DNA of 64,000 bases from Deltaproteobacteria bacterium (GTDB taxonomy: Bacteria; Desulfobacterota; Desulfomonilia; UBA1062): positions 20,587 to 84,586 of the forward strand of contig JAHDQN010000040.1 in the NCBI GenBank assembly GCA_018433775.1, written 5' to 3'. This document shows, in pieces, positions 3,968 to 38,174 of the stretch. Made by a program: the position numbers and the translations under genes. The notes below the pieces were generated by a model. It was not told the origin of the DNA. It searched no databases and worked only from the letters and a program-made list of their open reading frames with translations. Positions within the stretch are counted from its first letter, which is position 1. Every line of letters starts with the position of its first letter.

Positions 3968-4311
3968 AATTACGAATATACCATGCTCCTCTTTTCGGAA
4001 GACCTTTCTCCTGGGGGGAGAGCTCGTGAGGGCCGTGCAGGAATCAGGGCAGACTCCGTCAGTAGAAGGTGAACGTGAAGATAGAAAATGGTCTCCTCTC
4101 ATTCATTTCATGCATCGACAAGGTCCGGCCGCCATTCCTGGCGTCCGGGCAATAACCTGTGAATACGATATCATTTTTTCCGCGACAAATCCAGATGAAA
4201 GTGAAAATGCTCAAGCCGCACGGGACTGCACCGTTCATGGCCCTGCCGCTCTGTACGGGCGGTCGAGCGGGCTGAACAGACCCCGCCGGGGTTTCCGGAG
4301 GCGTTACAGCC

Positions 4312-5946
<1,635 letters not shown>

Positions 5947-6085
5947 CTACCGTAGAGATCTGTGGGCCGTCAAGCCACGGACGCCCCGGGTTAACGCTCC
6001 AAGCCTGCACATAAATTCCATAACGACTCTCCCCAAAACTTCGTGCCCGTAATCGCAATCATGCAGTCAAAAAAAACTCTTGAAA

Positions 6086-6120
6086 ACTGCTTGATATTTC
6101 GCATGCGCACTTACGGCAAC
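6086..6120 (-). promoter_or_regulatory. Conserved 35-nt element, copy 1; reads as a sigma-70-like promoter on the minus strand (-35 TTGCCG, 17-nt spacer containing CGCATGCG, -10 TATCAA) upstream of pyrG
   Basis: ACTGCTTGATATTTCGCATGCGCACTTACGGCAAC is nearly identical to 25586-25622. Both copies sit in intergenic DNA upstream of minus-strand operons. Confidence 0.35.
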
Positions 6121-6271
6121 AGATACTGAGAAATCATCGCCTGTACCACACCGCGCGACACCTCCCGGAGGGGGAAAAATCCCTGGCAACAGCCCCCGCG
6201 CACCGACCTCCGGCATAAACCCAGAAAAAACATTCCCGGGCGGCGGCAGGCTGCATCCACGGGCCACGGTC

Positions 6272-18807: not shown

Positions 18808-20139
18808 TTAGAGCAGCGGCAGATAGGTGTCGATCTCGTACTTGCTGACATGGGTCCTGAAGGCGTCCCACTCCTTCTTCTTGTTTTCTACGAACTTCTC
18901 GAAGATGTGGTCACCCAGGGCCTCCCTCACCAGCGTGCTCCCGGACACCTCCTGGATCGCCTCGAAGAGGTTGCCAGGCAGCGAGGTGATCCCGGCCTCC
19001 TCCCGCGCCTTCTCGTCCATCTCGAAGATATCCTTCTCGATGGGCTCGGGCAGGGTATACCCTTTTTCAATGCCCTCCAGCCCGGCCGCTATCTGCACCG
19101 CAAAGGCCAGGTAGGGGTTGCAGGCCGGGTCAGGCGCCCTGAACTCGATCCGGGTGGCCTTGGCCTTGCCCGGCTTGTACATGGGGACCCTGAGCATTGC
19201 CGAGCGGTTTCTCCTGGCCCAGGACACGTAGACCGGGGCCTCGTAGCCGGGAACGAGCCTCTTGTAGGAGTTCACCCACTGGTTGGTGACCGCGCAGATC
19301 TCCCGGGCGTGGTTGAGAATACCCGCGATGTAGTGCTTGCCCACCTTCGAGAGATGGTACTTGTCGCCCGCGTCGAAAAAGGCGTTGTCGTCGCCCGTGA
19401 ACAGCGACTGGTGGACGTGCATGCCGCTGCCGTTCTCGCAGGCGAGCGGCTTGGGCATGAAGGTGGCGTACACCCCGTGCTGGCGGGCGATCTCCTTGAC
19501 CGTGGTCCGGTAGGTCATGACGATGTCGGCCATGGTGAGCGCCTCTTTGTACCGCAGGTCGATCTCGTGCTGCGACGGGGCGACCTCGTGGTGGCTGTAC
19601 TCCACCTGGATGCCCATCTTCTGCAGGCTGAATATGGTGTCGCGCCGGATGTCGGGGCCCCGGTCGATGGGCAGGCCGTCGAAGTACCCTCCCCTGTCCA
19701 GGATGGTGGTGCACTTGTCGTCTGCGAAGTAGAAGTATTCCAGCTCCGGCCCGAGAAACACGTTGTACCCTTTCTCAGCCGCCCTGGCCAGCACGCGCTT
19801 GAGCGCGTATCGCGGGTCGCCTTCGTAGGGGGTGCCCTCCGGGGTCAGGATGTCGCACACCATGCGGGCCACGGGATAATCCGACGGTCTCCAGGGCAGG
19901 AGCTGGAAGGTGGCGGGGTCCGGCTTGGCGATCATGTCGCTCTCGTGGACCCGGGCAAAGCCCTCGATGGAGGACCCGTCGAAACCCATGCCCTCCTCGA
20001 TGCCTTCTTCAAGTTCCGAGGGCGTCAGATTGAAGCTCTTGAGCCTGCCCAGAACATCGGTGAACCAGAACTGTATGAAGCTGACCTTGTGTTCCTTTAC
20101 AGCCTTCATAACATCTTGCTTTGTCTTGCATTGTAACAT
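18808..20139 (-). CDS. glnA: Glutamine synthetase, type I
   Basis: 443 aa from the ATG at 20139 (GGAGGA RBS): MLQCKTKQDVMKAVKEHKVSFIQFWFTDVLG. Further motifs are GSGMHVHQSL and NPYLAFA. Confidence 0.95.
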   Translation of the reverse strand: MLQCKTKQDVMKAVKEHKVSFIQFWFTDVLGRLKSFNLTPSELEEGIEEGMGFDGSSIEGFARVHESDMIAKPDPATFQLLPWRPSDYPVARMVCDILTPEGTPYEGDPRYALKRVLARAAEKGYNVFLGPELEYFYFADDKCTTILDRGGYFDGLPIDRGPDIRRDTIFSLQKMGIQVEYSHHEVAPSQHEIDLRYKEALTMADIVMTYRTTVKEIARQHGVYATFMPKPLACENGSGMHVHQSLFTGDDNAFFDAGDKYHLSKVGKHYIAGILNHAREICAVTNQWVNSYKRLVPGYEAPVYVSWARRNRSAMLRVPMYKPGKAKATRIEFRAPDPACNPYLAFAVQIAAGLEGIEKGYTLPEPIEKDIFEMDEKAREEAGITSLPGNLFEAIQEVSGSTLVREALGDHIFEKFVENKKKEWDAFRTHVSKYEIDTYLPLL

Positions 20140-20187
20140 GGCTCGTCCTCCATTTTCGTCTTCTTGCATTATCAAGCGTTTCTTTGT

Positions 20188-22521
20188 CTATTCCAGGGGT
20201 TCGTTTTCCCTGAGCTCCCATATCCCGCACGGGCAGGCCCCTGCACAGAACCCGCACCCGATGCAGCGGTCGTCTTCGAGGCAGTACTCAAAGCCGCCTT
20301 CCGGGATGTCCTTCCGGAAGATTGCCTGACGGGGGCAAATCGCCTCGCATACCCCGCAGTCCCTGCATCCGCCGCAGGAGGCGCACATCTCCGAGCACTG
20401 TCCGATGTCCTCCGCAGCCCGGCGCCCCGGGTCGTAGTACTCGAGCCTCACCCGGCCGGCATCCATGGGTGACGGCGCTTCCGGCGGCCCGTGTACGCCT
20501 TTGATCAGCGCATCGATCGACTGCGACACCCTTCTGCCCGCACCGATGGCGTCGGTGATAAGCCCGGGCTTTACGCTGTCTCCGACGGCGTACACCTTTG
20601 GATCGGACGTGCGGCAACCATCGTCCGCCACGATGAAACCGTGACGGCTGTCTATGTCTTCGGGGAGGAATGATATGTCAGGCCGGTCGCCGATTGCAAC
20701 AACTACTGTATCACCCGGGAGAATTTTGCCGTCCGCAAGCTCGACGCCCGTGGCGTTTATCGCCCGTGCCGACACCGGCCAGAGAAACCGGGCACCCGCC
20801 CTTTCCGCAGCCGCGCGCTCGCGGCCGAAGGACGCGGGCTCCCGGACGTCGATCAGGGTGATTTCCTCAGCTCCCAGGCGGCTCGCCTCGGTGGCCGCAT
20901 CGCAGCCCACGTTGCCCGCGCCGATGATCACGACCCTGCCTCCAACCGTGATGTCGCCGCGCTTCGATCTTCGGAGAAAATCCAGTGCAGGCACCGCCAT
21001 CTCGCCACCCGGTATCCCGAGGGTGCAGGGAATCCCGGCACCCACGGCGATGACCGTGAAATCGTGACCTTCTTTCAGAGCCAGGAACTCCTTCTGACCG
21101 AACTCTCCCATTAGCCGTCTGAAAGAAATCTTTTCGAGAACCCGGCCGAGCTCCCTGCGGAACACCTCATCGGGAAAGCGGGTGCCCGGTATGGCCTCCG
21201 CGATCTTCCCGCCCGGCTCGGGCGACCGGTCGTACACCACGGGCTCGTGTCCCTTCATCCAGAGCTGCCAGGCAACGGACAACCCGGCCGGACCGGCCCC
21301 GAGGACCGCGACCTTCGCGCCCGTGGACGCACAAGGCCGGGGCTCGCGGGCATCCAGGCTCGCCCTGCCGAGCACGGTCACATCCACTGGGGTCATATGG
21401 TCCAGATTTCTGGTGCAGCTCTGCATGCACAGGTTCGGGCAGAGGTAACCGCACACCGTGGCCGGAAAAGGTGTGTACTGGAGCGCCAGGTCCACGGCCT
21501 CCTGCACCAGGCCCCTGCGGATGAGCTCCCAGCGCCTCTGCACCGGAATGCCGGCCGGGCAGGCCGCCTGGCAGGGCGGTACATGCTTGTGGTTTTCCCA
21601 TATGGGCGCGAACCTGCGCATCGGGCCGGTCGCGATCACCGGGACCTGGCCGCGGTCCATATCGGTGAGGTCCCCGATCAAGCCTCCCGTTCCCAGCTCC
21701 CGCTCCCATACCCGTGAACGGAACCGTGAAATGGATATCCGTTTCCCGCAGTCCTTCTCATGGGGCTCAAGCGCAGCGAGAAGCCGCCAGGCGGACCGGT
21801 CGCCGCTCAGCACATCGAGAAGATCCTCACGGCCGATGGCCCTCAAGAAATCCTTCATGCCGCTCTGAAGCCATTGCCAGTCCTCGTCGCCGATGCGGGT
21901 CATCCTGACGTCGGCCTCGCTGTAGCTCTTCTGGGTGCCGCGGAAGAAAATCCTGCCGCCCACCATGCCCACGCAGGGATTGTGCCCCAGGATATTGCCC
22001 CGATAATGCGAGCCCAGGCCGCATACCACGGCCACGCCACCGGCCATGAACTCGGCGAACGAATCGCCCACCCCTCCCAGGACCCAGAGCTCGGGCGGTG
22101 AGAACCGGGGGTTGCTCTTGGTCATGGTCATGCCCCTGGCGCCGATGTCGCCGGCAATATAGATCCTGCCCTGGGCCATGGCATTGGCGATGCCGTTGGT
22201 TGCATCGCCGTGCACCACGATGGTAGCACCTGCGTTGAGCCACCCCACATCATCGGATGCATGACCGTGAACCTCGATGAATGTGTGCGGTGATCCCATG
22301 GAGCCGATCCGCTGACCCGGGTGCCCATGGATGTCGATGAGCACCGGCTCCGGGCCGGTATTCCAGAGCCTGCCGCCGATCCCGTGCTGGCCGTAGGCCT
22401 GCACCTCGACCCTGGGGTATCCGCCTGCAACCGCCTTCTGGATGCGCTCTTCCAGAACCCGGGATTCCACCCGGCTCCCCTCTTCCATGCCCTGGATCAC
22501 GACCTTCTCGTGCCGGTTCAT
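20188..22521 (-). CDS. Glutamate synthase GXGXG-domain (GltB domain 3) fused to GltD-like FAD/NAD(P) oxidoreductase and a C-terminal 2x[4Fe-4S] ferredoxin
   Basis: From the ATG at 22521 (MNRHEKVVIQGM). The GXGXG region is GQHGIGGRL...HGHASDDVGWLNAG...GDATNGIANAM. The dinucleotide fold is KVAVLGAGPAGLS. The C-terminal clusters are CGGCRDCGVCEAICP and CIGCGFCAGACP. Confidence 0.8.
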   Translation of the reverse strand: MNRHEKVVIQGMEEGSRVESRVLEERIQKAVAGGYPRVEVQAYGQHGIGGRLWNTGPEPVLIDIHGHPGQRIGSMGSPHTFIEVHGHASDDVGWLNAGATIVVHGDATNGIANAMAQGRIYIAGDIGARGMTMTKSNPRFSPPELWVLGGVGDSFAEFMAGGVAVVCGLGSHYRGNILGHNPCVGMVGGRIFFRGTQKSYSEADVRMTRIGDEDWQWLQSGMKDFLRAIGREDLLDVLSGDRSAWRLLAALEPHEKDCGKRISISRFRSRVWERELGTGGLIGDLTDMDRGQVPVIATGPMRRFAPIWENHKHVPPCQAACPAGIPVQRRWELIRRGLVQEAVDLALQYTPFPATVCGYLCPNLCMQSCTRNLDHMTPVDVTVLGRASLDAREPRPCASTGAKVAVLGAGPAGLSVAWQLWMKGHEPVVYDRSPEPGGKIAEAIPGTRFPDEVFRRELGRVLEKISFRRLMGEFGQKEFLALKEGHDFTVIAVGAGIPCTLGIPGGEMAVPALDFLRRSKRGDITVGGRVVIIGAGNVGCDAATEASRLGAEEITLIDVREPASFGRERAAAERAGARFLWPVSARAINATGVELADGKILPGDTVVVAIGDRPDISFLPEDIDSRHGFIVADDGCRTSDPKVYAVGDSVKPGLITDAIGAGRRVSQSIDALIKGVHGPPEAPSPMDAGRVRLEYYDPGRRAAEDIGQCSEMCASCGGCRDCGVCEAICPRQAIFRKDIPEGGFEYCLEDDRCIGCGFCAGACPCGIWELRENEPLE

Positions 22522-22570
22522 GCGTCCGCCCCCCGATGTCCGGGTGTTTTTTCTGTCATGGCCGGGCACC

Positions 22571-24205
22571 TCACACCACATACCTGATCTGAAGACGCTC
22601 GGCCGCATGAAAGTCGTCGATGCCGAGCGCGTCGGACATGCCGATGGGAAGAGAGGTGGACCTTCCCATGGGCGCGAGGATCTTCTTGAGTTCGGCGTCA
22701 AAGCTCAAAAACACGTCGACCAGCCGCCCGGCCACGTCTTCGGGGTCGAGCCTGCGGTAGAGTCTGGGGTCCTGCGAGGTGATCCCCTTGGGGCATCGGC
22801 CGAGGTTGCAGATGTTGCACCGGTCCCCCTCCGAACCGACGCACCCGGCCGCCGCCTGCATGAGATATTTGCCCACCTGAACCCCGCTTGCACCGAGCAT
22901 GATGAGCGCAGCGGCATTTGCCGCCAGGTTGCCGTTCTTTCCCGCGCCTCCTCCGGCGAAGAGAGGGATCTCGTTCTGCTTGCCGATCTTCACCAGGTTC
23001 AGGTATGCGTCTCGCACATTGGCGGCGATGGGATGGCCCATGTGGTTCATGGACACGTTGTATGCCGCTCCGGTTCCCCCGTCCTCGCCGTCGATGGCCA
23101 AGGCCGCCGCGTACCGGTTGCGCGCGATGTTGTTGAGCACGGCGGTCGTGGTGCTGGTAGCCGATATCTTCGGGTACACCGGCACCCTGAAGCCCCATGC
23201 CATTGAGAGCGACTGGATCATCTTGGCCACGGACTCCTCTATGGAGTATTTGGTCTGGTGCGTGGGCGGCGAGGGCAGGCTCACCCCGGGCGGCACCCCC
23301 CTGATGGCGGCGATGAGCCCGTTCACCTTATGCCACATGAGCAGCCCGCCGTCTCCGGGCTTGGCGCCCTGGCCGTACTTGATCTCGATGGCGCAGGGGT
23401 CTTCCTTCATCTCTGGCAGGGCGTGGATGATCTCGTCCCAGCCGAAATACCCGCTCGCGATCTGGAGGATCACATACTTGAGAAACCGCGACCTGAGCAG
23501 CCGCGGCGGGCACCCGCCCTCGCCCGTGGATATCCTCACGGGCATGCCAAGCTCCTCGTTCAGATAGGCCACGCCCATCTGGAGCCCCTCCCACATGTTC
23601 GGGGAGAGTGCCCCGAACGACATGCCGCCCACGATCAGGGGATAGATCTCCCGCACCGGTGGCGCCCATCCGTCCTCTTTTGCCGAGTTGAGGATCTCCT
23701 CGGGAGGCAGGATGCGCCCCAGGAGGGTCCTGAGCTCGAACTCGTGCCTGCCGGCGTCCAGGGCCGGGTCGGTGAGCATGGAGATGCGGACGAACTTGAT
23801 GCGGTCGAGCACGCTTGCCGTGTCGTTCCGCCTGCCTCCCCGCCGCCTCGGCTCTCCGCCCTGGTTGGCATGAAACTTCAGCTTGTCGGTCTCCTCGCTC
23901 CTTACGGGGAATATGGCGGAGTTGGGGCAGACGAACGAGCACATGCCGCACCCCACGCAGGCATGTGCCGGGTCGGTTTTCTGGTCGATCCCGTAATAAA
24001 CGCGGTAGACGTTTCCCGGCCTCTCGCCCAGGCCCATGAGAACCGGCACCTCCCGCCTGCGGTGCACGCCGAGCTCGATTGCCCTCACCGGGCACACCGC
24101 AGTGCACTGTCCGCACAGGGTGCACCGGTCCCTGTCCCAGCAGACGCGCCAGGGCAGGTCCCTGGGGCTCAGTGCAGATGGGTGCAGGGTTCCCATTGGC
24201 TCCAT
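22571..24205 (-). CDS. Glutamate synthase FMN/central domain (GltB domain 2) with N-terminal 2x[4Fe-4S] ferredoxin
   Basis: From the ATG at 24205 (GGAGG RBS). Cluster motifs are CTLCGQCTAVCP and CVGCGMCSFVCP. The FMN domain shows GGMSFGALS, KPGDGGLL and FAGGGAG. It overlaps the upstream gene's end by 37 nt. Confidence 0.85.
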   Translation of the reverse strand: MEPMGTLHPSALSPRDLPWRVCWDRDRCTLCGQCTAVCPVRAIELGVHRRREVPVLMGLGERPGNVYRVYYGIDQKTDPAHACVGCGMCSFVCPNSAIFPVRSEETDKLKFHANQGGEPRRRGGRRNDTASVLDRIKFVRISMLTDPALDAGRHEFELRTLLGRILPPEEILNSAKEDGWAPPVREIYPLIVGGMSFGALSPNMWEGLQMGVAYLNEELGMPVRISTGEGGCPPRLLRSRFLKYVILQIASGYFGWDEIIHALPEMKEDPCAIEIKYGQGAKPGDGGLLMWHKVNGLIAAIRGVPPGVSLPSPPTHQTKYSIEESVAKMIQSLSMAWGFRVPVYPKISATSTTTAVLNNIARNRYAAALAIDGEDGGTGAAYNVSMNHMGHPIAANVRDAYLNLVKIGKQNEIPLFAGGGAGKNGNLAANAAALIMLGASGVQVGKYLMQAAAGCVGSEGDRCNICNLGRCPKGITSQDPRLYRRLDPEDVAGRLVDVFLSFDAELKKILAPMGRSTSLPIGMSDALGIDDFHAAERLQIRYVV

Positions 24206-25299
24206 CTCCTGACCTCCATCCGCGAGGCATCCACACAGGCGAGGTCGTATTTCATGGGCTGGAATTCGCAGTTTCCTTCCCGGACGGGAATGGCCCCGTC
24301 GAGCCCGCACATCTCGGAAGAGAAGGCGAACATCCCGGGCCTGCCTCCCACAACGCCCGGCCTGAGTTTCTTGCTGTCGTGGACCATGAAGAGTGTCTTG
24401 TCGGGCAGACACCCGATCACACAGTTGGGCCCGTCGATGGTGAGAAAACGGCAGCCGTGCTTGAGCCTTCTCAGAAACGCACTGTCCGGGTGCCTGGTCA
24501 GCTCCTCGTCCTTGAGCGGGGTGATGATGTGTTTGTAGGCATCGATCCCGAGCCCAAGCCGGTTTGCGGTGTAGTGCAGGATATGGGTGAACACCTCGGA
24601 GTCAGACTGATAGCCCGCATATCCGGGAAAACCCCGCGACATCAGATAATCCCGTATAGGCCCGAACGCGGTGTTCTCGCCGTTGGTCATGGTGGCGAAG
24701 CCCTGGAGAAAGAAGGGGTGGCAGGCATAGAGGGTAACGGCATAGTTGGTGTTCTGCCTGCCCTGGGCCATGATCACCCGCGCCTTCAGACTCTTCCGGT
24801 CGAGCCCGAGATATTCGGCTATGGCCAGGGGATCGCCTACTTCCTTGATCATGATCGTGTCCGGCCAGAAGGAAAAGACCATCATGGACCCGTCCTGCTC
24901 GCCCAGCCTCCTCAGGTCGATCCGGATCCTCATGAGCCGCGCCGCGATCTCGGCCTCGCTCAGGCCCTCCCACTCGAAAGGATACTCATACACCCGGATG
25001 AGGTACACGTCGCGTTTCGGGGTGCCCTCGGGCGGCTCCTTGGCGGGCCTGATGGAAAGCTTGAACTTGGTGAGCAGGCCCAGCTCCATCATGTAGCGAT
25101 CGAGCCTCTTGATCCCTTCCTGGGAGAAAACGCCCGAAAGGATGGGAGAACCCCTGAACTGTTCCAGGTCCCCGCCGAGGTCGGTCATGAACAGGCCGAC
25201 CCCGGAACCGTCGTGGCCTTCTTTCATGACGTCCAGGGCACGCAGGGCGACCATGGGCGAGAGCGGCTCGTTACTCGTTATGGCGAACAGACGGCACAC
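24169..25299 (-). CDS. Glutamate synthase glutamine amidotransferase subunit (class-II Ntn, GltB domain 1 type)
   Basis: I propose the GTG start at 25297-25299, which puts Cys directly after the initiator (M-CRLFAITSNEPLSP), as Ntn amidotransferases require. AAGGAGGA lies upstream. The track start at 25392 is rejected. Confidence 0.75.
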   Translation of the reverse strand: MCRLFAITSNEPLSPMVALRALDVMKEGHDGSGVGLFMTDLGGDLEQFRGSPILSGVFSQEGIKRLDRYMMELGLLTKFKLSIRPAKEPPEGTPKRDVYLIRVYEYPFEWEGLSEAEIAARLMRIRIDLRRLGEQDGSMMVFSFWPDTIMIKEVGDPLAIAEYLGLDRKSLKARVIMAQGRQNTNYAVTLYACHPFFLQGFATMTNGENTAFGPIRDYLMSRGFPGYAGYQSDSEVFTHILHYTANRLGLGIDAYKHIITPLKDEELTRHPDSAFLRRLKHGCRFLTIDGPNCVIGCLPDKTLFMVHDSKKLRPGVVGGRPGMFAFSSEMCGLDGAIPVREGNCEFQPMKYDLACVDASRMEVRRWSQWEPCTHLH

Positions 25300-25337
25300 C
25301 TTGTTTTCGTCCTCCTTGTCGTGCTTGGACAGGAAAG

Positions 25338-25353
25338 AGCGAAATCCGTGCCA
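25338..25353 (-). promoter_or_regulatory. Candidate sigma-54 (-24/-12) promoter of the glutamate synthase-glnA operon
   Basis: The minus strand reads TGGCACGGATTTCGCT. GG and GC have the correct spacing, with one mismatch to TGGCACG-N4-TTGC. It lies about 40 nt upstream of the proposed GTG start. Confidence 0.5.
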
Positions 25354-25516
25354 TGGGTGCGGGTCCTGTTCCTTTCCGGAGCATCGGATCAATTTTATTC
25401 CATCGATTCCAGGTATTACAAAATAACATTACCCGGCCGGCACCATGTCTGCATCCGGAATTTCCCGGCGGAGCCGGTTTCCAGTATTTTCCAATAATGT
25501 TCGATCAGATATGCTT

Positions 25517-25532
25517 TGCACAATTTTGTTCC
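25517..25532. promoter_or_regulatory. Near-palindromic candidate enhancer (UAS) site
   Basis: TGCACAATTTTGTTCC matches TGAACAATATTGTACC (33006-33021) at 13 of 16 positions. It lies about 170 bp upstream of the candidate sigma-54 promoter. Confidence 0.3.
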
Positions 25533-25585
25533 ATCCTCCTCTTTCGTCCGCATGATCGTAATCCTTCGGTCAAGACCGCTCCATG

Positions 25586-25622
25586 ACTGCTTAACATATT
25601 TCGCATGCGCACGTACGACAAC
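25586..25622 (-). promoter_or_regulatory. Conserved element, copy 2 (sigma-70-like: -35 TTGTCG, 17-nt spacer with CGCATGCG, -10 TATGTT on the minus strand)
   Basis: ACTGCTTAACATATTTCGCATGCGCACGTACGACAAC, compared with 6086-6120. Confidence 0.35.
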
Positions 25623-25784
25623 GTGTACAAAGAAGGGGAATCCAATGGCATGGACCCCGGGGCTTGCCCTTGAGGTTCATGCCATTGATAAAAAGCTGCC
25701 CGGACAAAGGCTTGCCGGAACCGGTGCGATTTTTTCCGTGCCGATCCGCGGGGCGCGCTCCGCCGGGACTGAACGGGGTTTCGC

Positions 25785-27041
25785 TCAGAACTCGGTGAGC
25801 TCCGGGCCTTTCACCCCGTTGAGGAATTCCTGCACGATCCCGACCCCCCGTTTGAAGTCCGGAAGCGTGGGGGTCAGGACCGAGAGCCGGATGTAATGCG
25901 ACCAGCGGGCACCGTAGATGTCTCCGGGCGTGATTCGGATACCCTGCTCCAGCAGCCTGTCCCGGCAGATCCGGCTGGGTATGGGCGTCCTGATCCACAC
26001 GCAGGCCCCCCCCGGCTCCCACGGCGTGTTCTGTTCGAGATAGGCGCTCCGCTGGGCGAGCTCGTGCCGCAGCCGTTCGATATGCCCGGTCAGCCTCGAC
26101 GAGGTGAACACCGTGAGCAGAGAGCGCTGCAGGATTCCCGAAAGCGAGAGGTCGTTGATCTCCTTGAGATCGAGAATGCTTCTCTGCATGGATTCCGGAA
26201 AGACCGCGAACCCCATGCGCAGACCCGGGCCCAGGACGTTGGAGAGGCTCTTGATGTAGATGACCCGCCCGCGGGTATCCCTGGCCTTTAAGGGGGTGAT
26301 TCCGACAACATCGGAAAGGGGATCGTCCTCGACGATGAAGAAGTTCTTGTCGGAAGCCATGGAGACGAGATCGTCCCGCAAATCTTCCGGCATGGATCTT
26401 CCGGTGGGGATGTGGCCCTGCGGCATGGTGTAGAGCAGGCGGATATCCATGCCTTTGATCCGATCGAGATCGTCTCGGCTCGCGATGCGGGGGACGAAAA
26501 CAACCTCGGCCCCGAGTGACTCGAAGATCCGTACGGCCCCCATGTATCCGGGATCCTCAACGGCCACGGCATCGCCCTTGCTCAGCAGGGAAAGGCCAAG
26601 CAGAAAGAGGGCCTGCTGGGAGCCCGAGGTGACGATCGGGGCGGCGTCGATCCCGGAAGACCTGAGCCATTTCCCGGCCTGCTCGCGCAGGGGCTCGTAC
26701 CCCTGGGGAGGGTCGTACGCGTTGAGCCCTTCGATGGTGAGCCTGAGATGCTGGCTCACCCAGAGCATCAGCTCCTCGGGCGGGCGGATCGCCGCCATGT
26801 CGATATCGCCCCCGGTCAGACTGTGCGCCACAAAGGTGCCCGCGCCCTGCCGGCTCACGACCAGGCCCTGTTCGAAAAGATACCGGTACACGTTTTTCGC
26901 CGTCACCATGCTGATGTTTTCGCTCCTGGCCAGCTCCCTTACGCCGGGCAGCCGCTCTCCCGGCGTCCTGTCCCTGAGGATGCCGTCTGCGAGCCTCCGG
27001 GCGATCTGTTTGTACCGCATGAGATTCTCCTTTTCCATCAT
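25785..27041 (-). CDS. pdxR: MocR/GntR-family regulator with aminotransferase-like domain, PdxR-like
   Basis: The N-terminal GntR wHTH is YKQIARRLADGILRDRTPGERLPGVRELARSENISMVTAKNVYRYLFEQGLV. The C-terminus is a fold-type I aminotransferase-like domain. It is divergent from pdxS across 65 bp. Confidence 0.75.
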   Translation of the reverse strand: MMEKENLMRYKQIARRLADGILRDRTPGERLPGVRELARSENISMVTAKNVYRYLFEQGLVVSRQGAGTFVAHSLTGGDIDMAAIRPPEELMLWVSQHLRLTIEGLNAYDPPQGYEPLREQAGKWLRSSGIDAAPIVTSGSQQALFLLGLSLLSKGDAVAVEDPGYMGAVRIFESLGAEVVFVPRIASRDDLDRIKGMDIRLLYTMPQGHIPTGRSMPEDLRDDLVSMASDKNFFIVEDDPLSDVVGITPLKARDTRGRVIYIKSLSNVLGPGLRMGFAVFPESMQRSILDLKEINDLSLSGILQRSLLTVFTSSRLTGHIERLRHELAQRSAYLEQNTPWEPGGACVWIRTPIPSRICRDRLLEQGIRITPGDIYGARWSHYIRLSVLTPTLPDFKRGVGIVQEFLNGVKGPELTEF

Positions 27042-27106
27042 GACAAATAGTGATACAGTTCTCTATTATCACAATTAATGTTATATAACAATAGGAGTTG
27101 ACCAAT

Positions 27107-27994
27107 ATGAGTGATATCAGTGAAAGAATCATCGTCAACCGTGGGCTGGCACAGATGCTCAAAGGCGGGGTGATCATGGACGTGACCACGGCGGATCAGG
27201 CCCGTATCGCCGAGGATTCCGGGGCCGTGGCGGTTATGGCCCTGGAGCGTGTCCCCGCGGATATCCGCGCCCAGGGCGGTGTCGCCCGGATGAGCGACCC
27301 TGCCGTTATCCGTGCCATCCAGGAGGCAGTGACCATCCCGGTCATGGCCAAGGTGAGGATCGGCCACCTGGTCGAGGCCCAGGTGCTCCAGGCGCTGAAG
27401 ATCGACTATATCGACGAGAGCGAGGTCCTGACGCCCGCGGACGAGAGCAACCACATCGACAAGCACGCCTTCGAGGTGCCGTTCGTGTGCGGCTGCCGCG
27501 ACCTGGGAGAGGCGGCGCGCCGGATCGGCGAGGGCGCGAGCATGATCCGGACCAAGGGAGAGGCAGGCACGGGAAACGTGGTGGAGGCCGTCAGGCACAT
27601 GCGCACCCTCATGGGACAGATCCGTATGCTGCTCTCGATGCGTGAAGACGAGGTCCCGGGATTTGCCAGGGAGATCGCGGCGCCCTTCGAGGTCCTTGCC
27701 GATATCAGGAAATCAGGGGCTCTTCCCGTGGTGAACTTTGCCGCGGGCGGCGTGGCCACCCCGGCGGATGCCGCTCTCATGATGCAGCTCGGGGCTGACG
27801 GCGTGTTCGTCGGGTCGGGCATCTTCAAGTCGGGCGACCCTGCCCGGCGTGCAAAGGCCATCGTGGAGGCCGTGGCCCACTGCGACGACCCCGCCTGGAT
27901 CGCACGGGTTTCCGAAGGCCTGGGCGAGGCCATGTCCGGCCTCGACGTGCGGACCATGCCCGAGGGCGAGCGGCTTGCCGGGCGGGGGCGGTGA
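27107..27994 (+). CDS. pdxS: Pyridoxal 5'-phosphate synthase lyase subunit
   Basis: [27 protein letters not shown]...[10 protein letters not shown]...[20 protein letters not shown]. The ATG at 27107 is 9 nt after GGAG. The track uses a TTG at 27098. Confidence 0.95.
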
Positions 27995-28602
27995 TGGTGA
28001 TCGGGATACTCGCACTCCAGGGAAACGTGCGCGAGCATATGACGAACCTGAACAGACACGACGTGCAGGGACGCCCCGTTCGCCTGCCCGCCGATCTCGC
28101 CGGGATCGAGGGCCTCATCCTTCCGGGTGGTGAGAGCACCGCCATGAGGAATCTCGTCTCGTCCTCCGGGCTCGAAAAACCCGTGGGCGATCTCATCCGA
28201 CAGGGTCTGCCCGTATGGGGAACCTGCGCCGGGGTCGTACTGCTGGCCCGGGGAGGGATCTGGTCCAGCGTCGATATCACGGTGGAGCGCAATGCCTACG
28301 GCTCCCAGGTCTTCAGCCGCCTGGTGCATGGAAGCTCGGCCCTCTCGGAAACGCCGACCCCCATGGTCTTCATCCGCTCGCCCCGGATCACCTCTGCGGG
28401 GCGTGAAGTCGAAGTCCTCGCCGAGGTCGGGGGGGATGTCGTGGCTGTACGGCAGGGCAATATCCTGCTCACGACCTTTCATCCCGAGCTGGTCGACCAC
28501 AGCCCCTTCACTGCCTGTTTCATCGAAATGGTGAGCTCGGCCCGCTCGGATGAAACACCGGTCCCAGGGCACTGCCCGAAAGAGACCGGCCGGGCAGTCT
28601 GA
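27994..28602 (+). CDS. pdxT: Pyridoxal 5'-phosphate synthase glutaminase subunit
   Basis: [15 protein letters not shown]...LILPGGESTAM...WGTCAGVVLLA. The start overlaps the pdxS stop (TGATG). Confidence 0.92.
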   Translation: MVIGILALQGNVREHMTNLNRHDVQGRPVRLPADLAGIEGLILPGGESTAMRNLVSSSGLEKPVGDLIRQGLPVWGTCAGVVLLARGGIWSSVDITVERNAYGSQVFSRLVHGSSALSETPTPMVFIRSPRITSAGREVEVLAEVGGDVVAVRQGNILLTTFHPELVDHSPFTACFIEMVSSARSDETPVPGHCPKETGRAV

Positions 28603-28707: not shown

Positions 28708-30228
28708 TCAGCTCTTTTTCGCCTTGAACCTGTCGACGTCGATCCCGTATTTCTCCACCTTGTACTGGATGATGCGCTTGGTGGTGCCCAGGACCCGCGC
28801 GGCCTTGCTCTGGTTTCCCTTTGCATCCTTGAGGGCATCGACGATAAGGGAGCGCTCGTAGGCGCCGATGAGGCTGGAGAGCTGGCCCTGCTTCTTCTTC
28901 GCCGGAGCCACCACCTTCATCTGCAGCGAGGGCGGCAGGTGCGTGCTGTCGATGGTGTCGCCGCCCGCGAGCAGCACGGCCCGCTCGATGCAGTTTTCCA
29001 GCTCCCGGACGTTCCCGGGCCAGTGATAGGCGAGGAGCGAGTCGATGGCAGGGGTCGAGATCCGCTTGATGTGTTTGCCGAACTCGTGAGCGTATTTCTC
29101 CACGAAGTAGTCGGCCAGGAGCAGGATATCGCCTCCCCGCTCCTTGAGGGCCGGCATGTAGACCGGAAACACGTTGAGACGGTAGTAGAGGTCGGAGCGG
29201 AAACGCCCCGAGGCCGCGTCCTGCTCCAGGTCGCGGTTCGTGGCGGCGATGATGCGCACGTTGACCTTGACCGTCCGGGTGGTGCCCAGGGGTTGGAACT
29301 GCCGCTCCTGGATCACGCGCAGCAGCTTGGCCTGCGCCAGGGGCGAGAGCTCGCCCACCTCGTCAAGGAAGATGGTGCCCCCGTGTGCCTCCTCGAAACG
29401 GCCCCTCCGGCGCTGGCTCGCACCGGTGAACGCGCCTTTCTCGTGCCCGAAAAGCTCGCTCTCGATCAGGGTGTCGGGCATGGCGGCGCAGTTCACCTCG
29501 ATGAAGGGTCCCGCGGCGCGGGGTGAGTTACGGTGAATGGCCCTGGCCACCAGCTCCTTTCCGGTGCCGGTCTCGCCGTGGATGAGAACCGTGGTGTTGG
29601 AATCCGCGACCTGGGAGATCAGCCCGAAGATCTCCTTCATGCCTTTCGAGTTGCCTACGATCTCGGAGGCCGGCCTCTGGGTCCTGCCCAGGATGTTTTT
29701 CAGCCGCCGGTTCTCTTCTTCGATTGCGCGCGTGTGCACCGCCTTGGCGATCAGGCCCGCCACCTCGGAGAGGTATCGGATCTCGTAGTCCTGGCTGTCG
29801 ACCTGCCGGGCCACCTTGTCGGCGGAGAGCACGCCCACGACCTTGCCGTCGTAGATGATGGGCACGCAGAGGAACGAGAGCTCGGAGCGGTCCAGGAACT
29901 TTCTGGCCCCGGTGCGGTCGAGAAAATGCTCCTCCTTGCCCAGGTTCGCGATCACCATGGGCTTGCCGGTCTGGGCCACCTGGCCCGTAATCCCCTCGCC
30001 CGGTTTGTAGGTGATGTCGAGGCCCTCGATGTCCACACCGTGGGCCAGATCCAGGATCGCCTCCCCCGTGTCCCGGTCGAGGATGGAGATCATGCCGCGG
30101 TCCATCCCGGTCTTCTCGCTCAGAGTCTCGAGCACCTGTTCGAGCTGTTCCCGCAAGTCAAGGGGGGTAGCGAGAATCCGGGCCAGATCGTGGAGAACAT
30201 CCAGGTCTTCGTACTCAAAAAGTGTCAT
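28708..30228 (-). CDS. Sigma-54-dependent transcriptional activator with N-terminal GAF domain (NifA-like architecture)
   Basis: The GAF region is DRGMISILDRDTGEA...ITGQVAQTGKPMVI. The AAA+ domain shows VLIHGETGTGKE and ESELFGHEKGAFTGA. The C-terminal Fis-type HTH is NQSKAARVLGTTKRIIQYKVEKYGI. Confidence 0.88.
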   Translation of the reverse strand: MTLFEYEDLDVLHDLARILATPLDLREQLEQVLETLSEKTGMDRGMISILDRDTGEAILDLAHGVDIEGLDITYKPGEGITGQVAQTGKPMVIANLGKEEHFLDRTGARKFLDRSELSFLCVPIIYDGKVVGVLSADKVARQVDSQDYEIRYLSEVAGLIAKAVHTRAIEEENRRLKNILGRTQRPASEIVGNSKGMKEIFGLISQVADSNTTVLIHGETGTGKELVARAIHRNSPRAAGPFIEVNCAAMPDTLIESELFGHEKGAFTGASQRRRGRFEEAHGGTIFLDEVGELSPLAQAKLLRVIQERQFQPLGTTRTVKVNVRIIAATNRDLEQDAASGRFRSDLYYRLNVFPVYMPALKERGGDILLLADYFVEKYAHEFGKHIKRISTPAIDSLLAYHWPGNVRELENCIERAVLLAGGDTIDSTHLPPSLQMKVVAPAKKKQGQLSSLIGAYERSLIVDALKDAKGNQSKAARVLGTTKRIIQYKVEKYGIDVDRFKAKKS

Positions 30229-30334: not shown

Positions 30335-32923
30335 CTATCCTTCAAAAAAGCACACCACCTTCTGCTGCACCACATTCGAGACGATTCGCACCTTTTTGTC
30401 GCGTACATCGAAGACCCGGACCACGTCCCGGTATCTTCTCTCCTCGGGCAGAACCTTTTCCAGGATATCGGTAAGACCGTCCTGCCACGATGAGTTGTAG
30501 TACACATCCTCTTTCCAGGGGAAAATGGCCACGAAGAAGATCCGGTTCTCCACGAGGTCCTGGAAAAAGTGCGTGCCGTAGGAGAGCTCGGGCATGAGGT
30601 TGCCCTCGATGGATGCGATCTCTCCCAGGACCGTCATATTGCAGATCTCGGAGAAGTGTACCGGCACACCCAGGGAGGGCGTGGTGGTCCCCCACCTGCC
30701 GGGCCCCAGGAGCATGGTGGACAGGTCGGTGCGTACGGGAGCCTGCCGGTTCAGGATTCCCACCACCCGGCCGATGTCGTACTTCCGCTGCAGCGGGAGA
30801 TCCATATAGGCACGGGGCTCCACAGAGATGATGCGGTCGATGGACTGCGAGATGCTGCCTCCCATGAAGTTGCCGTTCATGCGGAACAGGACGTTCCTGT
30901 CGTCCACCTGCCCGGGAAACTCCACGGGCCTCTCCTCGCCGATGGTCTGCAGCGGCCGGCACTGGACCAGATTTATCCGGAATTCGTCCGGGCCCGTGAA
31001 ATTGATCGTGAACTCGATGTCGACGGGATAATCGTAGCCTTTCTCCAAAACCTTCATCATGGATTGCATCAGGGAGGGGAAATCGGAGCTGGAGAGGAAG
31101 TCGTCAAAGGTGATGATCCATGCATCGTGATCCTCCCTGCCGTACTCCCTGAGCCTTTGGCTCGCCTCGTCGTCGAACACAGCGATGCTCTGGAGGGGCA
31201 TGTCGATGCGCTCGCGGGCGAGACCTGCAAACGCACGGGTCTGGAGCTCGTTGTCGTGGATGTTGATCACGTCCACGCTGTGCTGGGAGAAGGCGCGCAG
31301 TTCGTCCATTCCGGCAAAGGGCCGTTTCAGGGGGTCGTCCAGGGCCACCAGCCGGGGATAGTCCCCTTCCACCCGGTCCACGGCCCGAGTTCCCAGACCG
31401 AGCACCATCCTGAGCATGCCTGCCTTCGGGTCCATGCCCTCCTTCCAGACAAAGGTGTTGTAGGACACCCCCACCCCGCCGATATCCGGGAAGAAATACG
31501 GCCCGCGGTAGGAGCCGGACACCCGCTGGACCAGCAGGGCCATCTGCTCGTCCTGGGATTCCAGCCCCCGCTGCCTGCGGTAGATAAGGGCGCTCTCGTC
31601 CATGGTGCTGGCGAAAATCCGCTTCACCGCAGCTTCGAACCCGGCATAGCGCTCCTCGGGCGAGCCCTGGTTCGCGCAGAAGACGCTCTCATACTTGCCG
31701 GCAAAGGCGTTGCCGAAGGAGTCTTCCAGCAGCGAGCTGGAGCGCACGATGATGGGCGACTGTCCGAAGTACTCGATAATCTGGTAGAAGTGCTCCTTGA
31801 TGTCGTCCGGGAACACCCCCTCGCGCATCCTCTCTGCGAGCACCGGCGCCATGCTGAAAAACCCCTCGGGCGTCTTCTGCTCCATGCGCAGCTTCCAGCA
31901 GCCGTTGTTGACGAGATAGGAATAAAAGACGTCGGAGCCGATGTAGAACGAGTCGTGAGGCTCCAGACGGTTGTCCCAGTCCCTGCCCGTGTCCTCGGCC
32001 AGGAGCTTCCGGGAGAGCAGGAGCCCCACGGTCTTGCCGCCGATGAAGCCCGATCCGATGAGGCGCGCCTTGATGTCCAGAAGATCCTCCAGACTCAGGT
32101 GCTCCTTGACCAGGGCGGACATCCGCGGATCGCGGGTGATCATGAGGTCGCAGAGCAGAGAGACCATCCGCCGCCGCTCCTGCTCCCCGGCATTGGACGG
32201 GGTCAGGCCCTCGGCCTCCATGAAGAGCCTGTCCCAGTAATCCAGGTTCCTCCTCGAGCTCTCCGTGAACCGCGACATGTGCGTGAAGAGCTTCGAGGCG
32301 TCAACGCTGCTGGTCACGGGCATGAACCTGTCCCCCTTTTCCAGGTGGGGCAGGAACATGGTGGGAGAATAGCGTTTCCAGACCTTCAGCGGCTGGACAT
32401 AGAAATCGCTGTCACAGTTGTAGGCATCCAGCAGAACCTGGGTGGTCTCCCTGATCCGCGCCACGGTTGCATAGGAATGACGGTTTCTCACCAGGGCGAA
32501 GTAGGCGACGGTCTTGAGCTCGAAGAGGTAGGGACAGGTGATGAGAAAGAAGTTTCCGATCATCAGGTCCGTGGCCCATGCCGAGAGCAGATCGGAAAGG
32601 CTGTCGAACACATAGTACGTCCCTTCCCCCTCGCCGGTGATGATCGTGTGCACCTGGGTGGAGAACGTCTCGAACCCCTGGTTCGAATCCAGGCGATGGA
32701 TGGTGAGACCTTCCCGGGGCCGCACCAGGGGCTCGTGCCGGGCGAAACGCATGTAGACGACCCGGTTGCGGTCATCGAGCGCCCTGGCCACGAACCGCTC
32801 CGCGATGCCCTGATAATCGCGGATGTCGTCAACCTGCCAGACCACGTTGTCGCCCGGCCGCAGCCAGTCGATGACGGGATCGAGGCCTTCGAGACCTGTA
32901 CTGACGTGATCGATCGCCTTCAT
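30335..32923 (-). CDS. PEP/pyruvate-binding (PPDK_N, ATP-grasp) domain protein with degenerate RecA/KaiC-like N-terminal domain
   Basis: The PPDK_N signature is SPIIVRSSSLLEDSFGNAFAGKYESVFC. The N-terminus TGLEGLDPVIDWLRPGDNVVWQVDD resembles KaiC/RAD55-like ATPases but has no GxxxxGK[ST] P-loop. I prefer the ATG at 32923 to the TTG at 32983. Confidence 0.65.
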   Translation of the reverse strand: MKAIDHVSTGLEGLDPVIDWLRPGDNVVWQVDDIRDYQGIAERFVARALDDRNRVVYMRFARHEPLVRPREGLTIHRLDSNQGFETFSTQVHTIITGEGEGTYYVFDSLSDLLSAWATDLMIGNFFLITCPYLFELKTVAYFALVRNRHSYATVARIRETTQVLLDAYNCDSDFYVQPLKVWKRYSPTMFLPHLEKGDRFMPVTSSVDASKLFTHMSRFTESSRRNLDYWDRLFMEAEGLTPSNAGEQERRRMVSLLCDLMITRDPRMSALVKEHLSLEDLLDIKARLIGSGFIGGKTVGLLLSRKLLAEDTGRDWDNRLEPHDSFYIGSDVFYSYLVNNGCWKLRMEQKTPEGFFSMAPVLAERMREGVFPDDIKEHFYQIIEYFGQSPIIVRSSSLLEDSFGNAFAGKYESVFCANQGSPEERYAGFEAAVKRIFASTMDESALIYRRQRGLESQDEQMALLVQRVSGSYRGPYFFPDIGGVGVSYNTFVWKEGMDPKAGMLRMVLGLGTRAVDRVEGDYPRLVALDDPLKRPFAGMDELRAFSQHSVDVINIHDNELQTRAFAGLARERIDMPLQSIAVFDDEASQRLREYGREDHDAWIITFDDFLSSSDFPSLMQSMMKVLEKGYDYPVDIEFTINFTGPDEFRINLVQCRPLQTIGEERPVEFPGQVDDRNVLFRMNGNFMGGSISQSIDRIISVEPRAYMDLPLQRKYDIGRVVGILNRQAPVRTDLSTMLLGPGRWGTTTPSLGVPVHFSEICNMTVLGEIASIEGNLMPELSYGTHFFQDLVENRIFFVAIFPWKEDVYYNSSWQDGLTDILEKVLPEERRYRDVVRVFDVRDKKVRIVSNVVQQKVVCFFEG

Positions 32924-33005
32924 GGAATTATCCCGTAGCACATTTCGATTCACTATTGAAGCCTGTTCATAGTTTTTCAACAATATTTAGCCCATTTATA
33001 TTCTT

Positions 33006-33021
33006 TGAACAATATTGTACC
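33006..33021. promoter_or_regulatory. Near-palindromic candidate enhancer (UAS) site upstream of amtB
   Basis: TGAACAATATTGTACC, with the perfect 10-bp palindrome ACAATATTGT at 33009-33018. A weaker copy, TCAACAATATTTAGCC, sits at 32977-32992. The site lies about 75 bp upstream of the sigma-54 promoter. Confidence 0.3.
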
Positions 33022-33086
33022 ATATACTTTTTGCCATTTGCAGAATTATACCTTATTTATCATAAAGTTATACCTTCCTGGGCAGC

Positions 33087-33102
33087 TGGCACCCCCCTTG
33101 CT
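33087..33102 (+). promoter_or_regulatory. Sigma-54 (-24/-12) promoter of amtB-glnK-glnD
   Basis: TGGCACCCCCCTTGCT is a perfect match to TGGCAC-N5-TTGCW. It lies about 47 nt upstream of the amtB ATG. Confidence 0.7.
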
Positions 33103-33148: not shown

Positions 33149-34354
33149 ATGATTTCTTCAGGTGATACCGCTTGGATGCTTGTCGCAACCGCACTGGTCA
33201 TGCTCATGACGCCGGGGCTCTCCCTGTTCTACGGAGGCCTCGTGCGCTCGAAGAACGTTCTGGGCACCATGATGCAGAGCTTCATCTGCCTGGGGCTGGT
33301 TTCCGTCCTCTGGATAGCTTATGGTTACAGCCTGGCCTTCTGCGGCGATGCGGGTGGAGTCATCGGCACCTTCCGGTGGGTCGGCCTTAAGGGGGTGGGG
33401 ATCGATGCCGGGCCTTATTCCGACACCATACCCCATCTGCTCTTCGCGGCCTTCCAGCTCATGTTCGCCATCATCACCCCGGCTCTGATCACCGGCGCGT
33501 TTGCCGAACGAATGAAATTCTCCGTGTTTCTCCTCTTTGTCATCCTCTGGAGCACGTTCGTGTATCTTCCGGTGTGCCACTGGGTCTGGGGCGGAGGCTG
33601 GCTGGGCAGGCTGGGAGCGCTCGACTTTGCCGGCGGCACGGTCATCCACGTCAACTCCGGCACGGCCGCACTGATGGCGGTCCTCGTCATCGGGAGGCGC
33701 AAAGGCTACAAAACCCAGCCCATCTATCCCCACAACCTTCCGCTCACCGTGCTCGGCGCATCGCTTCTGTGGTTCGGATGGTTCGGGTTCAATGCGGGCA
33801 GCGCCCTGGCAGCAAACGGAACCGCCACCCTGGCGTTCTTTACCACACAGGTCGCCACTGGCACCGCGGCGCTCTCGTGGATCCTGGCCGAAAAGATCAT
33901 CCGGGGAAAACCCACCACCTTGGGAGCGGTGTCCGGGGCGGTTGCCGGCCTGGTAGCCATCACCCCGGCGGCAGGGTTCGTGGGACCTGTCTCGGCGATC
34001 ATCATCGGCTTCGTGGCGGGAATCCTCTGCTATCTGGCGGTACTGCTCAAGGAGCGGATCGGGTACGACGACTCTCTCGACGTGGTGGCTGTCCACGGCA
34101 TCGGAGGTCTCTGGGGGGCGCTCGCCACCGGTCTGTTCGCTTCGGTGGGGGCCAGCGGCCTGTTCTTTGGGAATGCCCATCAGTTCTTCGTCCAGATAAT
34201 CGGTGCAGGCAGCGCGATCATCTACTCGGGCATTGTCACCACGATCATCCTCCTGGTGCTGAAATACACCGTGGGCCTGCGGGTGAGCGAGGAAGAGGAG
34301 ATCCAGGGCCTGGATGTGAGCCAGCACAACGAATCCGGATACGCTATCCGCTGA
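33149..34354 (+). CDS. amtB: Ammonium transporter
   Basis: 401 aa from the ATG at 33149 (AAAGGAGA RBS): MISSGDTAWMLVATALVMLMTPGLSLFYGGLVR...DFAGGTVIHVNSG...VHGIGGLWGA. The track's upstream extension is rejected. Confidence 0.95.
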   Translation: MISSGDTAWMLVATALVMLMTPGLSLFYGGLVRSKNVLGTMMQSFICLGLVSVLWIAYGYSLAFCGDAGGVIGTFRWVGLKGVGIDAGPYSDTIPHLLFAAFQLMFAIITPALITGAFAERMKFSVFLLFVILWSTFVYLPVCHWVWGGGWLGRLGALDFAGGTVIHVNSGTAALMAVLVIGRRKGYKTQPIYPHNLPLTVLGASLLWFGWFGFNAGSALAANGTATLAFFTTQVATGTAALSWILAEKIIRGKPTTLGAVSGAVAGLVAITPAAGFVGPVSAIIIGFVAGILCYLAVLLKERIGYDDSLDVVAVHGIGGLWGALATGLFASVGASGLFFGNAHQFFVQIIGAGSAIIYSGIVTTIILLVLKYTVGLRVSEEEEIQGLDVSQHNESGYAIR

Positions 34355-34432
34355 TGTGTCCGGACAGTGATGATATCCGGGTCGTACCGGCAGGGGCAAC
34401 GGGATCACGAGCGATGCAACCAGACAGAATAG

Positions 34433-34789
<357 letters not shown>

Positions 34790-34816
34790 GGCCTCGCCGG
34801 CACAGATCGGAGAAAT

Positions 34817-37394: not shown

Positions 37395-38174
37395 ATGCTG
37401 AGCAAGAGGATCATCGTATGCCTCGATGTGAGGGACGGGAAGACCACCAAGGGGGTCAGGTTCGAGGGCAACGTGGATATCGGCGACCCGGTGACCATGG
37501 CCAGGGAATACTACGAGCAGGGCGTGGACGAGCTCGTCTTCTACGACATCACGGCGTCGCACGAGAGGCGGGACATCATGATCGACGTGGTCGATCGCGT
37601 GGCCCGCGAGATCTTCATCCCCTTCTCCGTGGGCGGCGGCATCAGGAGCGTCGACGATATGTATCGGGCCCTTGACGCTGGGGCCGAGAAGATCAGCGTG
37701 AACTCGGCCGCGGTGCGCAGCCCGGACATCATCTCCCAGGGTGCCTGCCACTTCGGAAGCCAGTGCATCGTGCTCGGGATGGACGCCAGAAAGGTGCCGG
37801 CCTCACCCGCCATACCCTCGGGCTATGAGGTGGCGATCAACGGCGGCAGGACCTTCACGGGCATGGACGCCCTGCAGTGGGCCAGGAAGGCCCAGGACCT
37901 GGGTGCCGGAGAGATCTGCCTGAACTCCATCGACGCCGACGGCACCAACGACGGCTACGAGCTCGACCTCACCGGCATGATCTCGCGCAGCGTGGGCATT
38001 CCGGTCATCGCCTCGGGCGGGGCAGGCAGGCCGGAACATCTGCGCGACGTCTTCCTCCAGGCCGATGCCGATGCCGCGCTCATCGCCTCCATGGTCCACT
38101 TCGGCCGCTACACCATCCCGGGTATCAAGGCCTTTCTTAAAAACGCCCACATTCCGGTGCGCGACGTGGTCTGA
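37395..38174 (+). CDS. hisF: Imidazole glycerol phosphate synthase cyclase subunit
   Basis: [55 protein letters not shown]...VGGGIRS...IASGGAG. Confidence 0.93.

Follow-up and report, generated by a model that had tools for sequence, protein, structure and literature searches.

The leader of a glutamate synthase operon that ends in glnA was analyzed in a 64,000-nucleotide stretch of a Deltaproteobacteria bacterium genome (contig JAHDQN010000040.1), referred to below as the window. This leader very probably carries a sigma-54 promoter together with a tandem enhancer that it shares with amtB, and a NifA-like activator encoded in the same locus would act on both, placing the gltS-glnA and amtB operons in one ammonium-assimilation regulon. 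Comparisons were made using a set of 80 orthologous loci from Desulfomonilia, Syntrophales, and Smithella (70-96% protein identity, labelled L001 etc.), 76 of which had enough upstream DNA for the promoter counts. The coordinates of the features are collected in Table 1.

In the proposed mechanism, sigma-54 RNA polymerase would bind the -24/-12 element as a closed complex. The activator, a NifA-like one-component protein, would bind the two dyads through its Fis-type helix-turn-helix (HTH), oligomerize, contact the polymerase by DNA looping, and open the promoter with ATP. The same protein would drive amtB-glnK-glnD from an equivalent pair of sites, which precede a perfect sigma-54 promoter by 75 and 104 bp. 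The result would be a single regulon for ammonium assimilation, presumably switched on under nitrogen limitation, with the GAF domain as the sensor and 2-oxoglutarate or PII/GlnK as the candidate signals.

The proposed promoter, TGGCACGGATTTCGCT, agrees with TGGCAC-N5-TTGCW at 10 of the 11 specified positions, the sole mismatch being at -14, and its GG and GC are exactly 10 nt apart. A first-pass annotation of this stretch had described it as a one-mismatch sigma-54 match about 40 nt before a proposed GTG start, and its coordinates were right: the element is on the correct strand, and 38 nt, with GGAGG among them, separate its end from the GTG at 25299. The start codon was confirmed by the orthologous loci, all 80 of which begin (A/G)TG TG(C/T), that is, M-C. 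From the usual 12-nt distance, transcription of gltS would start near 25327. There are seven sigma-54-like matches of at least 9/11 in the window, and by position those before gltS and amtB are the ones placed a short way ahead of a gene start in the correct orientation. An enhancer-binding protein with the GAFTGA motif is encoded at 28708-30228.

Across genomes, 67 of the 76 loci carry the pattern TGGCAY-N5-TNGCW, with its GG and GC, 51-149 nt ahead of this start codon, compared with 0.014 matches expected per locus from a background of 1.0e-4 per position elsewhere in the same loci. The family logo is TGGCAYGrnTyT(G/C)GCW, in which the T at -15 is invariant; the base at -14 (position 25341 in the window) is G in 43 loci, C in 15, A in 8, and T in 1. 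When 18 loci were aligned, the leader was conserved only at the two upstream activating sequences (UAS1 and UAS2), the -24/-12 element (invariant columns TGGCA..T.T.GC), and the Shine-Dalgarno sequence with the start codon, and the rest was unalignable. On this alignment, the four islands are a clean phylogenetic footprint of the predicted sigma-54 promoter. The promoter was accepted because this cross-genome conservation is decisive, rather than the statistics of the window. Further sigma-54 matches were found far upstream in several loci (e.g. AGGCAGCC..GCTGCT), inside or adjoining the upstream activator gene, and were judged to be false positives; from their positions, they are read as falling in the stretch that encodes the HTH of the activator.

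The enhancer consists of two dyads, UAS1 (distal) and UAS2 (proximal). The palindrome TGCACAATTTTGTTCC (25517-25532) within UAS1 had been matched in the first-pass annotation to the amtB site TGAACAATATTGTACC (33006-33021) at 13 of 16 positions, and the same figure was obtained when the positions were counted by eye. Two further copies had been overlooked, namely the dyad CGAACATTATTGGAAA within 25486-25505 and the weaker amtB site at 32977-32992. The palindrome pattern occurs seven times in the window (2.7 expected), and across the loci its core ACAATATTGT, with at most two mismatches, reaches 25 times its coding-DNA density within 300 nt upstream. Sites are present in about 67 loci, and pairs separated by exactly 29 bp in 41 loci, while no pair at 28-30 bp was found in 423 kb of coding DNA. 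Relative to the GG of the promoter, the pairs are located at -172/-143 or -181/-152 in Desulfomonilia, at -138/-109 in Syntrophales, and at -123/-94 in Smithella; the position of UAS1 (-172/-181) thus recurs in loci of the Desulfomonilia clade.

A matrix was constructed from 86 sites in 43 other genomes, with the window and its two nearest relatives excluded. Its consensus, tGnaACAAwwTTGTnCca, is an 18-bp dyad in which ACA and TG are near-invariant. Only four places in the window scored at least 15 bits (27, 25.6, 18, and 17 bits), compared with 0.36 matches in shuffled sequence at this threshold, and all four are located in the gltS leader or before amtB. The best of them, the strong amtB site, lies 75 bp upstream of the GG of the amtB promoter, and a spacing of about 75 bp recurs before amtB in L003, L008, L013, L015, L019, and L020, among others. 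The weakest of the four (25384-25403) was left doubtful as a third activator site, since ATA replaces the invariant ACA and the site is lost in L161, where TTG has become CAG.

Promoter-proximal palindromes were also observed in other loci, centred at -32 from the GG in L009, L019, and L023 and at -23 in Smithella, with that of the window at about -42. Those at -23 or -32 are stronger than the one at 25384-25403. The steps of about 10 bp between clades suggest that these sites are confined to one helical face.

It is scarcely credible, given these counts, that the motifs are functionless chance matches in AT-rich intergenic DNA. The sigma-54 pattern, taken in the window by itself, is indeed no commoner than in shuffled sequence; however, the recurrence of the promoter in 67 of 76 loci against an expectation of 0.014, the spacing of exactly 29 bp in 41 loci, and the lack of conservation in the flanks already refute this explanation.

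The candidate for the protein that binds the dyads is encoded in the same locus. In most of the 80 loci, the gltS operon is directly preceded, in the same orientation, by an ortholog of the GAF-AAA+-HTH activator that is 65-98% identical over its full length, and in many loci amtB is divergent from this ortholog. In the window the activator gene lies 3.2 kb upstream of the sites, after an insertion of three genes. Because of the layout in most relatives, amtB <-> activator - gltS x3 - glnA was taken to be the ancestral arrangement, and in this reconstruction the three genes now separating activator and operon in the window, L001, and L018 are later acquisitions. The activator was considered the most likely binder of the dyads because of its synteny with them, their symmetry and pairing, and their fixed distances to two sigma-54 promoters.

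The best solved relative of the activator is NifA (9qq6_C; full length, E = 1e-109), and its best NCBIfam match is the NifA model, at 518.7 bits, which is under the TIGR01817 equivalog cutoff of 528.85. Identification as NifA itself was rejected on this sub-cutoff score, on the site (ACA-N4-TGT and not TGT-N10-ACA), and on the targets, namely gltS/glnA and amtB; the annotation of the window and the 80 loci showed no nif genes. Identification as NtrC was rejected because the protein has an N-terminal GAF domain and no receiver domain, and no linked kinase gene was found in the window or in the 80 loci. A literature search returned no description of a GAF-type activator of this kind, of its motif, or of its regulon, and the NifA-like activator is apparently previously undescribed.

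The palindromes might instead be operators of another factor, such as a nitrogen repressor, a protein of the NtcA/CRP type or the GlnR/TnrA type, or the MocR-like protein encoded next to the leader (25785-27041), although this is very unlikely. Some copies read GTAC-N6-GTAC and resemble the NtcA site GTA-N8-TAC, and in Syntrophales and Smithella the palindrome also occurs on the downstream side of sigma-54 motifs, where a repressor site would be more usual. However, the core is ACA-N4-TGT, and the T and A required by GTA-N8-TAC are present in just 27% and 12% of the sites; a TnrA/GlnR-type reading fails on the position frequencies as well. The MocR-like gene occurs in the window, L001, and L018 only, against about 67 loci with sites, and the distances to sigma-54 promoters are fixed at two operons. 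Across the whole set, the activator with the Fis-type HTH is the sole regulator gene that is syntenic with the sites, which again favours it as their binder.

Several observations weigh against the proposed sigma-54 regulon. In the window alone, the sigma-54 pattern is not significant (two matches against 1.5 expected); the second match is the perfect TGGCACCCCCCTTGCT, 47 nt before the amtB start. The -12 element of the gltS promoter is TCGCT and not TTGCW, and T at -14 is found in just 1 of the 67 loci. The seed core of the matrix was taken from the window, although the 29-bp spacing and the flank preferences are independent of that seed. The gltS enhancer, at about -168/-197 from the inferred start, is farther from its promoter than the amtB enhancer is, and no match to the IHF consensus WATCAANNNNTTR with at most one mismatch lies between enhancer and promoter in the window; of the 67 loci, 16 have such a match against 9 expected, a weak enrichment. 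No rpoN gene was seen among the annotated open reading frames (ORFs) of the 64-kb window. Finally, the assignment of the palindromes to the activator is drawn from synteny and position only. The first-pass proposal of nitrogen control through a shared enhancer nevertheless stands as regards the promoter, the dyads, their sharing with amtB, and the synteny of the activator, and responsiveness to nitrogen would follow from the gene content.

The same annotation had placed a conserved sigma-70-like element at 25586-25622, farther upstream, and had proposed dual control, with a second promoter in addition to the nitrogen-responsive one. The element is present at that location, and a second copy exists at 6086-6120 (86% identical over 37 nt), within a partial copy of the right-hand part of the insertion described below; over 84 nt, the pyrG copy is 74% identical to L001. 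The annotation had missed that the element lies inside a 171-nt insertion, which is limited to the window and L001. The element was found in 1 of the 80 loci (L001) and is missing from the other 79 and from L161. L018 and L161 (94-95% protein identity) lack the insertion and have an identical junction. No match to the element core was found in a metagenome scan, and the element is missing before pyrG in 80 more distant metagenome pyrG loci (57-66% identical). A role as a conserved regulatory element of pyrG and gltS was rejected on its absence from the metagenome scan, the pyrG loci, and 79 of the 80 gltS loci. On this distribution, the element is a real two-copy repeat, recent and outside the conserved regulatory module.

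The insertion also contains a hairpin with a 14-bp stem (arms 25643-25656 and 25674-25687; inverted repeat I2) and a T-rich tail; a minus-strand terminator-like site was called there, and the hairpin precedes the element. No terminal inverted repeats of the insertion were found, and its flanks showed only a possible direct repeat of 3-5 nt (CGG..), so it could not be called a mobile element. Rfam searches of the element regions gave no match in 25250-25850 (E up to 5) and two chance-level matches in 5900-6300.

Dual control would require the element to be a sigma-70-type promoter, constitutive or separately regulated, that reads through the enhancer into the operon, and this is unlikely. In its favour, a 17-nt spacer separates its hexamers TTGTCG and TATGTT, the counterpart before pyrG reads TTGCCG-17-TATCAA, and each copy points at the gene downstream. 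The terminator-like hairpin just upstream would insulate the element from the MocR-like gene, and a fresh promoter at this place would then be reasonable. However, the hexamers agree at 8 of 12 positions and were not called by the promoter scan, for which at least 9/12, a spacing of 16-18 nt, and key -10 positions were required; the pyrG copy is also below this criterion, with no T at -10 position 6. The L001 version has a degenerate -10 hexamer (TGTCTT), although it retains the supposed spacer GTGYGCATGCGAAAT. The insertion is missing from L018, L161, and all other loci, and is therefore not needed for expression of the operon; the empty metagenome scan likewise speaks against such a promoter. 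A weak promoter within the element may exist. Another sigma-70 candidate, TTGTAA-18-TAAAAT (25421..25392), was set aside as a chance-level match (1 against 0.4 expected) in the non-conserved AT-rich spacer.

The sigma-54 arrangement proposed for gltS-glnA may be compared with known systems. By textbook comparison it resembles glnAp2 and NtrC in having a sigma-54 promoter before ammonium-assimilation genes, a pair of dyads spaced by about 30 bp and located over 100 bp upstream, and one activator that also controls the amtB-glnK operon. The dyads of glnAp2 are at -108/-140. Unlike NtrC, the protein described here has an N-terminal GAF domain in place of a receiver and no NtrB-like kinase linked to it; its core site is ACAAwwTTGT, whereas that of NtrC is TGCACC-N5-GGTGCA. 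The target differs from glnAp2 as well, being a split, Fe-S-containing gltS-type operon joined with glnA. The GAF-AAA+-HTH architecture is that of NifA.

In Geobacter sulfurreducens, which also belongs to the former Deltaproteobacteria, an RpoN promoter was predicted upstream of the homologous, split glutamate synthase (GOGAT) operon GSU1235-1239 (PMC2725144), and footprinting located tandem sites for GnfM upstream of the RpoN promoters of nitrogen genes (PMC2995071). The GnfM sites include promoter-overlapping ones that are used for repression (PMC2995071). GnfM is a response regulator phosphorylated by GnfL, whereas a one-component GAF protein is the candidate in the window; for the GOGAT operon of Geobacter, the promoter is a computational prediction only, with no assigned activator site.

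A wider reading, on which the evidence appears evenly balanced, is that ammonium assimilation throughout a lineage of syntrophic and anaerobic Thermodesulfobacteriota (Desulfomonilia, Syntrophales, and Smithella) has as its master regulator a one-component NifA-like GAF activator instead of NtrBC, acting on gltS, glnA, and amtB-glnK-glnD through its own 29-bp-paired dyads. If this were true, the dyads that some clades have about 35 nt downstream of sigma-54 promoters before glnA and the activator gene would be downstream enhancers or sites of autorepression. For the regulon proposed in the window, a well-supported and testable prediction would become available for syntrophic anaerobes that are frequent in digesters and sediments but uncultured or difficult to grow. 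The promoter and sites that switch on glutamine synthetase-GOGAT and ammonium uptake would be named, along with a single protein as the probable sensor of nitrogen status. With the motif and the constant 29-bp spacing, the regulon could be annotated directly in metagenome-assembled genomes, of which there are hundreds. A NifA-type architecture would here be employed for general nitrogen assimilation instead of nitrogen fixation. The general picture of sigma-54 nitrogen control would be unchanged, and the switch would be of an ordinary kind.

In six Syntrophales loci (L045, L056, L058, L060, L061, and L071; ~11090-11170 or equivalent), a canonical TGGCAC-N5-TTGCT was observed directly after the stop codon of the gltD-like gene, and an activator-type palindrome follows about 35 nt downstream of it, before glnA. 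A promoter-then-palindrome layout was also seen before the activator gene in Smithella-type loci (L028, L029, L038, L048, L050, and L055; ~3970-4160). A palindrome in this position may reflect autoregulation or an enhancer acting from downstream. Nothing equivalent to the glnA-proximal promoter and palindrome is present in the window, where glnA begins just 12 nt after the preceding gene.

Table 1. Positions of the promoters, activator sites, genes, and repeats discussed in the text (numbered from the first letter of the window).
Feature	Position	Strand	Sequence	Remarks
gltS -24/-12 element	25353..25338	-	TGGCACGGATTTCGCT	GG 25352-25351, GC 25340-25339
UAS1, distal site	25515..25534		ATGGAACAAAATTGTGCAAA	Core ACAAAATTGT 25529..25520; centre 172 bp upstream of the -24 GG; 25.6 bits
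UAS2, proximal site	25486..25505		ATCGAACATTATTGGAAAAT	Centre 29 bp downstream of UAS1 and 143 bp upstream of the GG; 18.0 bits
Doubtful third site, promoter-proximal	25384..25403		ATGGAATAAAATTGATCCGA	17.1 bits; direct repeat D2 with UAS1
Shine-Dalgarno sequence of first gltS-type gene	25315..25311	-	GGAGG	AGGAGG conserved in alignment
Start codon of first gltS-type gene	25299..25297	-	GTG
gltS-type operon with glnA	18808..25299	-		Pfam, NCBIfam; gene order same in relatives
Amidotransferase subunit, operon gene 1	25299-24169	-		Ntn-type; begins M-C-R-L-F
Fe-S/FMN glutamate synthase subunit	to 22571	-		Fer4 + Glu_synthase
GXGXG + GltD-like subunit	22701-20188	-
glnA	20175-18808	-		12 nt after the GltD-like gene
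Lineage-specific insertion, 171 nt	25547..25717	-		Upstream of the enhancer; hairpin and 'sigma-70-like' element
'Conserved sigma-70-like element'	25586..25622	-	GTTGTCGTACGTGCGCATGCGAAATATGTTAAGCAGT	37-nt core GTTGYCGTAMGTGYGCATGCGAAAT..AAGCAGT
Partial second copy of the insertion (right-hand ~84 nt)	6030..6120	-		~100 nt upstream of pyrG (CTP synthase)
GAF-AAA+(GAFTGA)-HTH_8 activator, candidate dyad binder	28708..30228	-		GAF, Sigma54_activat, HTH_8 domains
amtB enhancer	32975..33023
Strong amtB site	33004-33023		TTTGAACAATATTGTACCAT	27 bits, best in window
Weaker amtB site	32977-32992		TCAACAATATTTAGCC	29 bp upstream of the strong site; direct repeat D1
amtB sigma-54 promoter, perfect	33087..33102	+	TGGCACCCCCCTTGCT	Serves amtB-glnK-glnD
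amtB	33149-34354	+
glnK	34451-34789	+
glnD	34817-37300	+

The window comes from a high-GC member of the Desulfomonilia/Syntrophales group, and its nearest genome record is the metagenome-assembled genome JAHDKO01 (L001), in which the first protein of the operon is 96% identical. The leader occupies a 485-nt minus-strand gap between the MocR-like gene (27041..25785) on one side and the split Fe-S-type glutamate synthase operon on the other. Farther upstream are two ORFs with no assignment, the activator gene (30228..28708), and a PPDK_N-like gene, with amtB-glnK-glnD (33149-37300) on the opposite strand. From the 12-nt gap before glnA and the overlapping gene junctions, the gltS-type genes and glnA are probably co-transcribed. 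A riboswitch or leader RNA was not supported, because no Rfam match at the gathering score was found in the whole window and the folding of the 421-nt leader was not unusual (z = -1.65).

The first gene of the operon (24169-25299, 376 aa) had no sequence match in Pfam, NCBIfam, or the PDB. Comparison with solved structures gave only the amidotransferase domain of GlmS at E ~0.6, and thousands of homologs carry the name 'glutamate synthase'. Its assignment as a putative amidotransferase subunit was based on the conserved M-C start, the names of homologs, and the operon context. The gene was noted as a widespread yet poorly modelled amidotransferase subunit.

The three genes that separate the activator from the gltS operon in the window (25785-28572) comprise a MocR/PdxR-like regulator of the GntR-aminotransferase type and two overlapping ORFs, neither of which had a Pfam or NCBIfam match. 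This stretch was found in the window, L001, and L018 only; most other loci have the activator gene immediately next to the leader of the operon. A large protein with a PPDK_N domain (phosphoenolpyruvate-utilising, ATP-binding) is encoded at 30335-32922, in the interval that separates the activator from amtB; a PPDK_N gene is found at the same place in L004, L005, L006, L010, L011, L012, and L014, and it might be part of the nitrogen locus. The region from 4312 to 38174 as a whole is a cluster of glutamine-using and nitrogen-assimilation genes, which includes pyrG, carB, carA, glnA, the three gltS-type genes, amtB-glnK-glnD, a 1243-aa SIS + GATase_6/7 protein (13499-17230), and a gene of the His_biosynth family (37395-38174).

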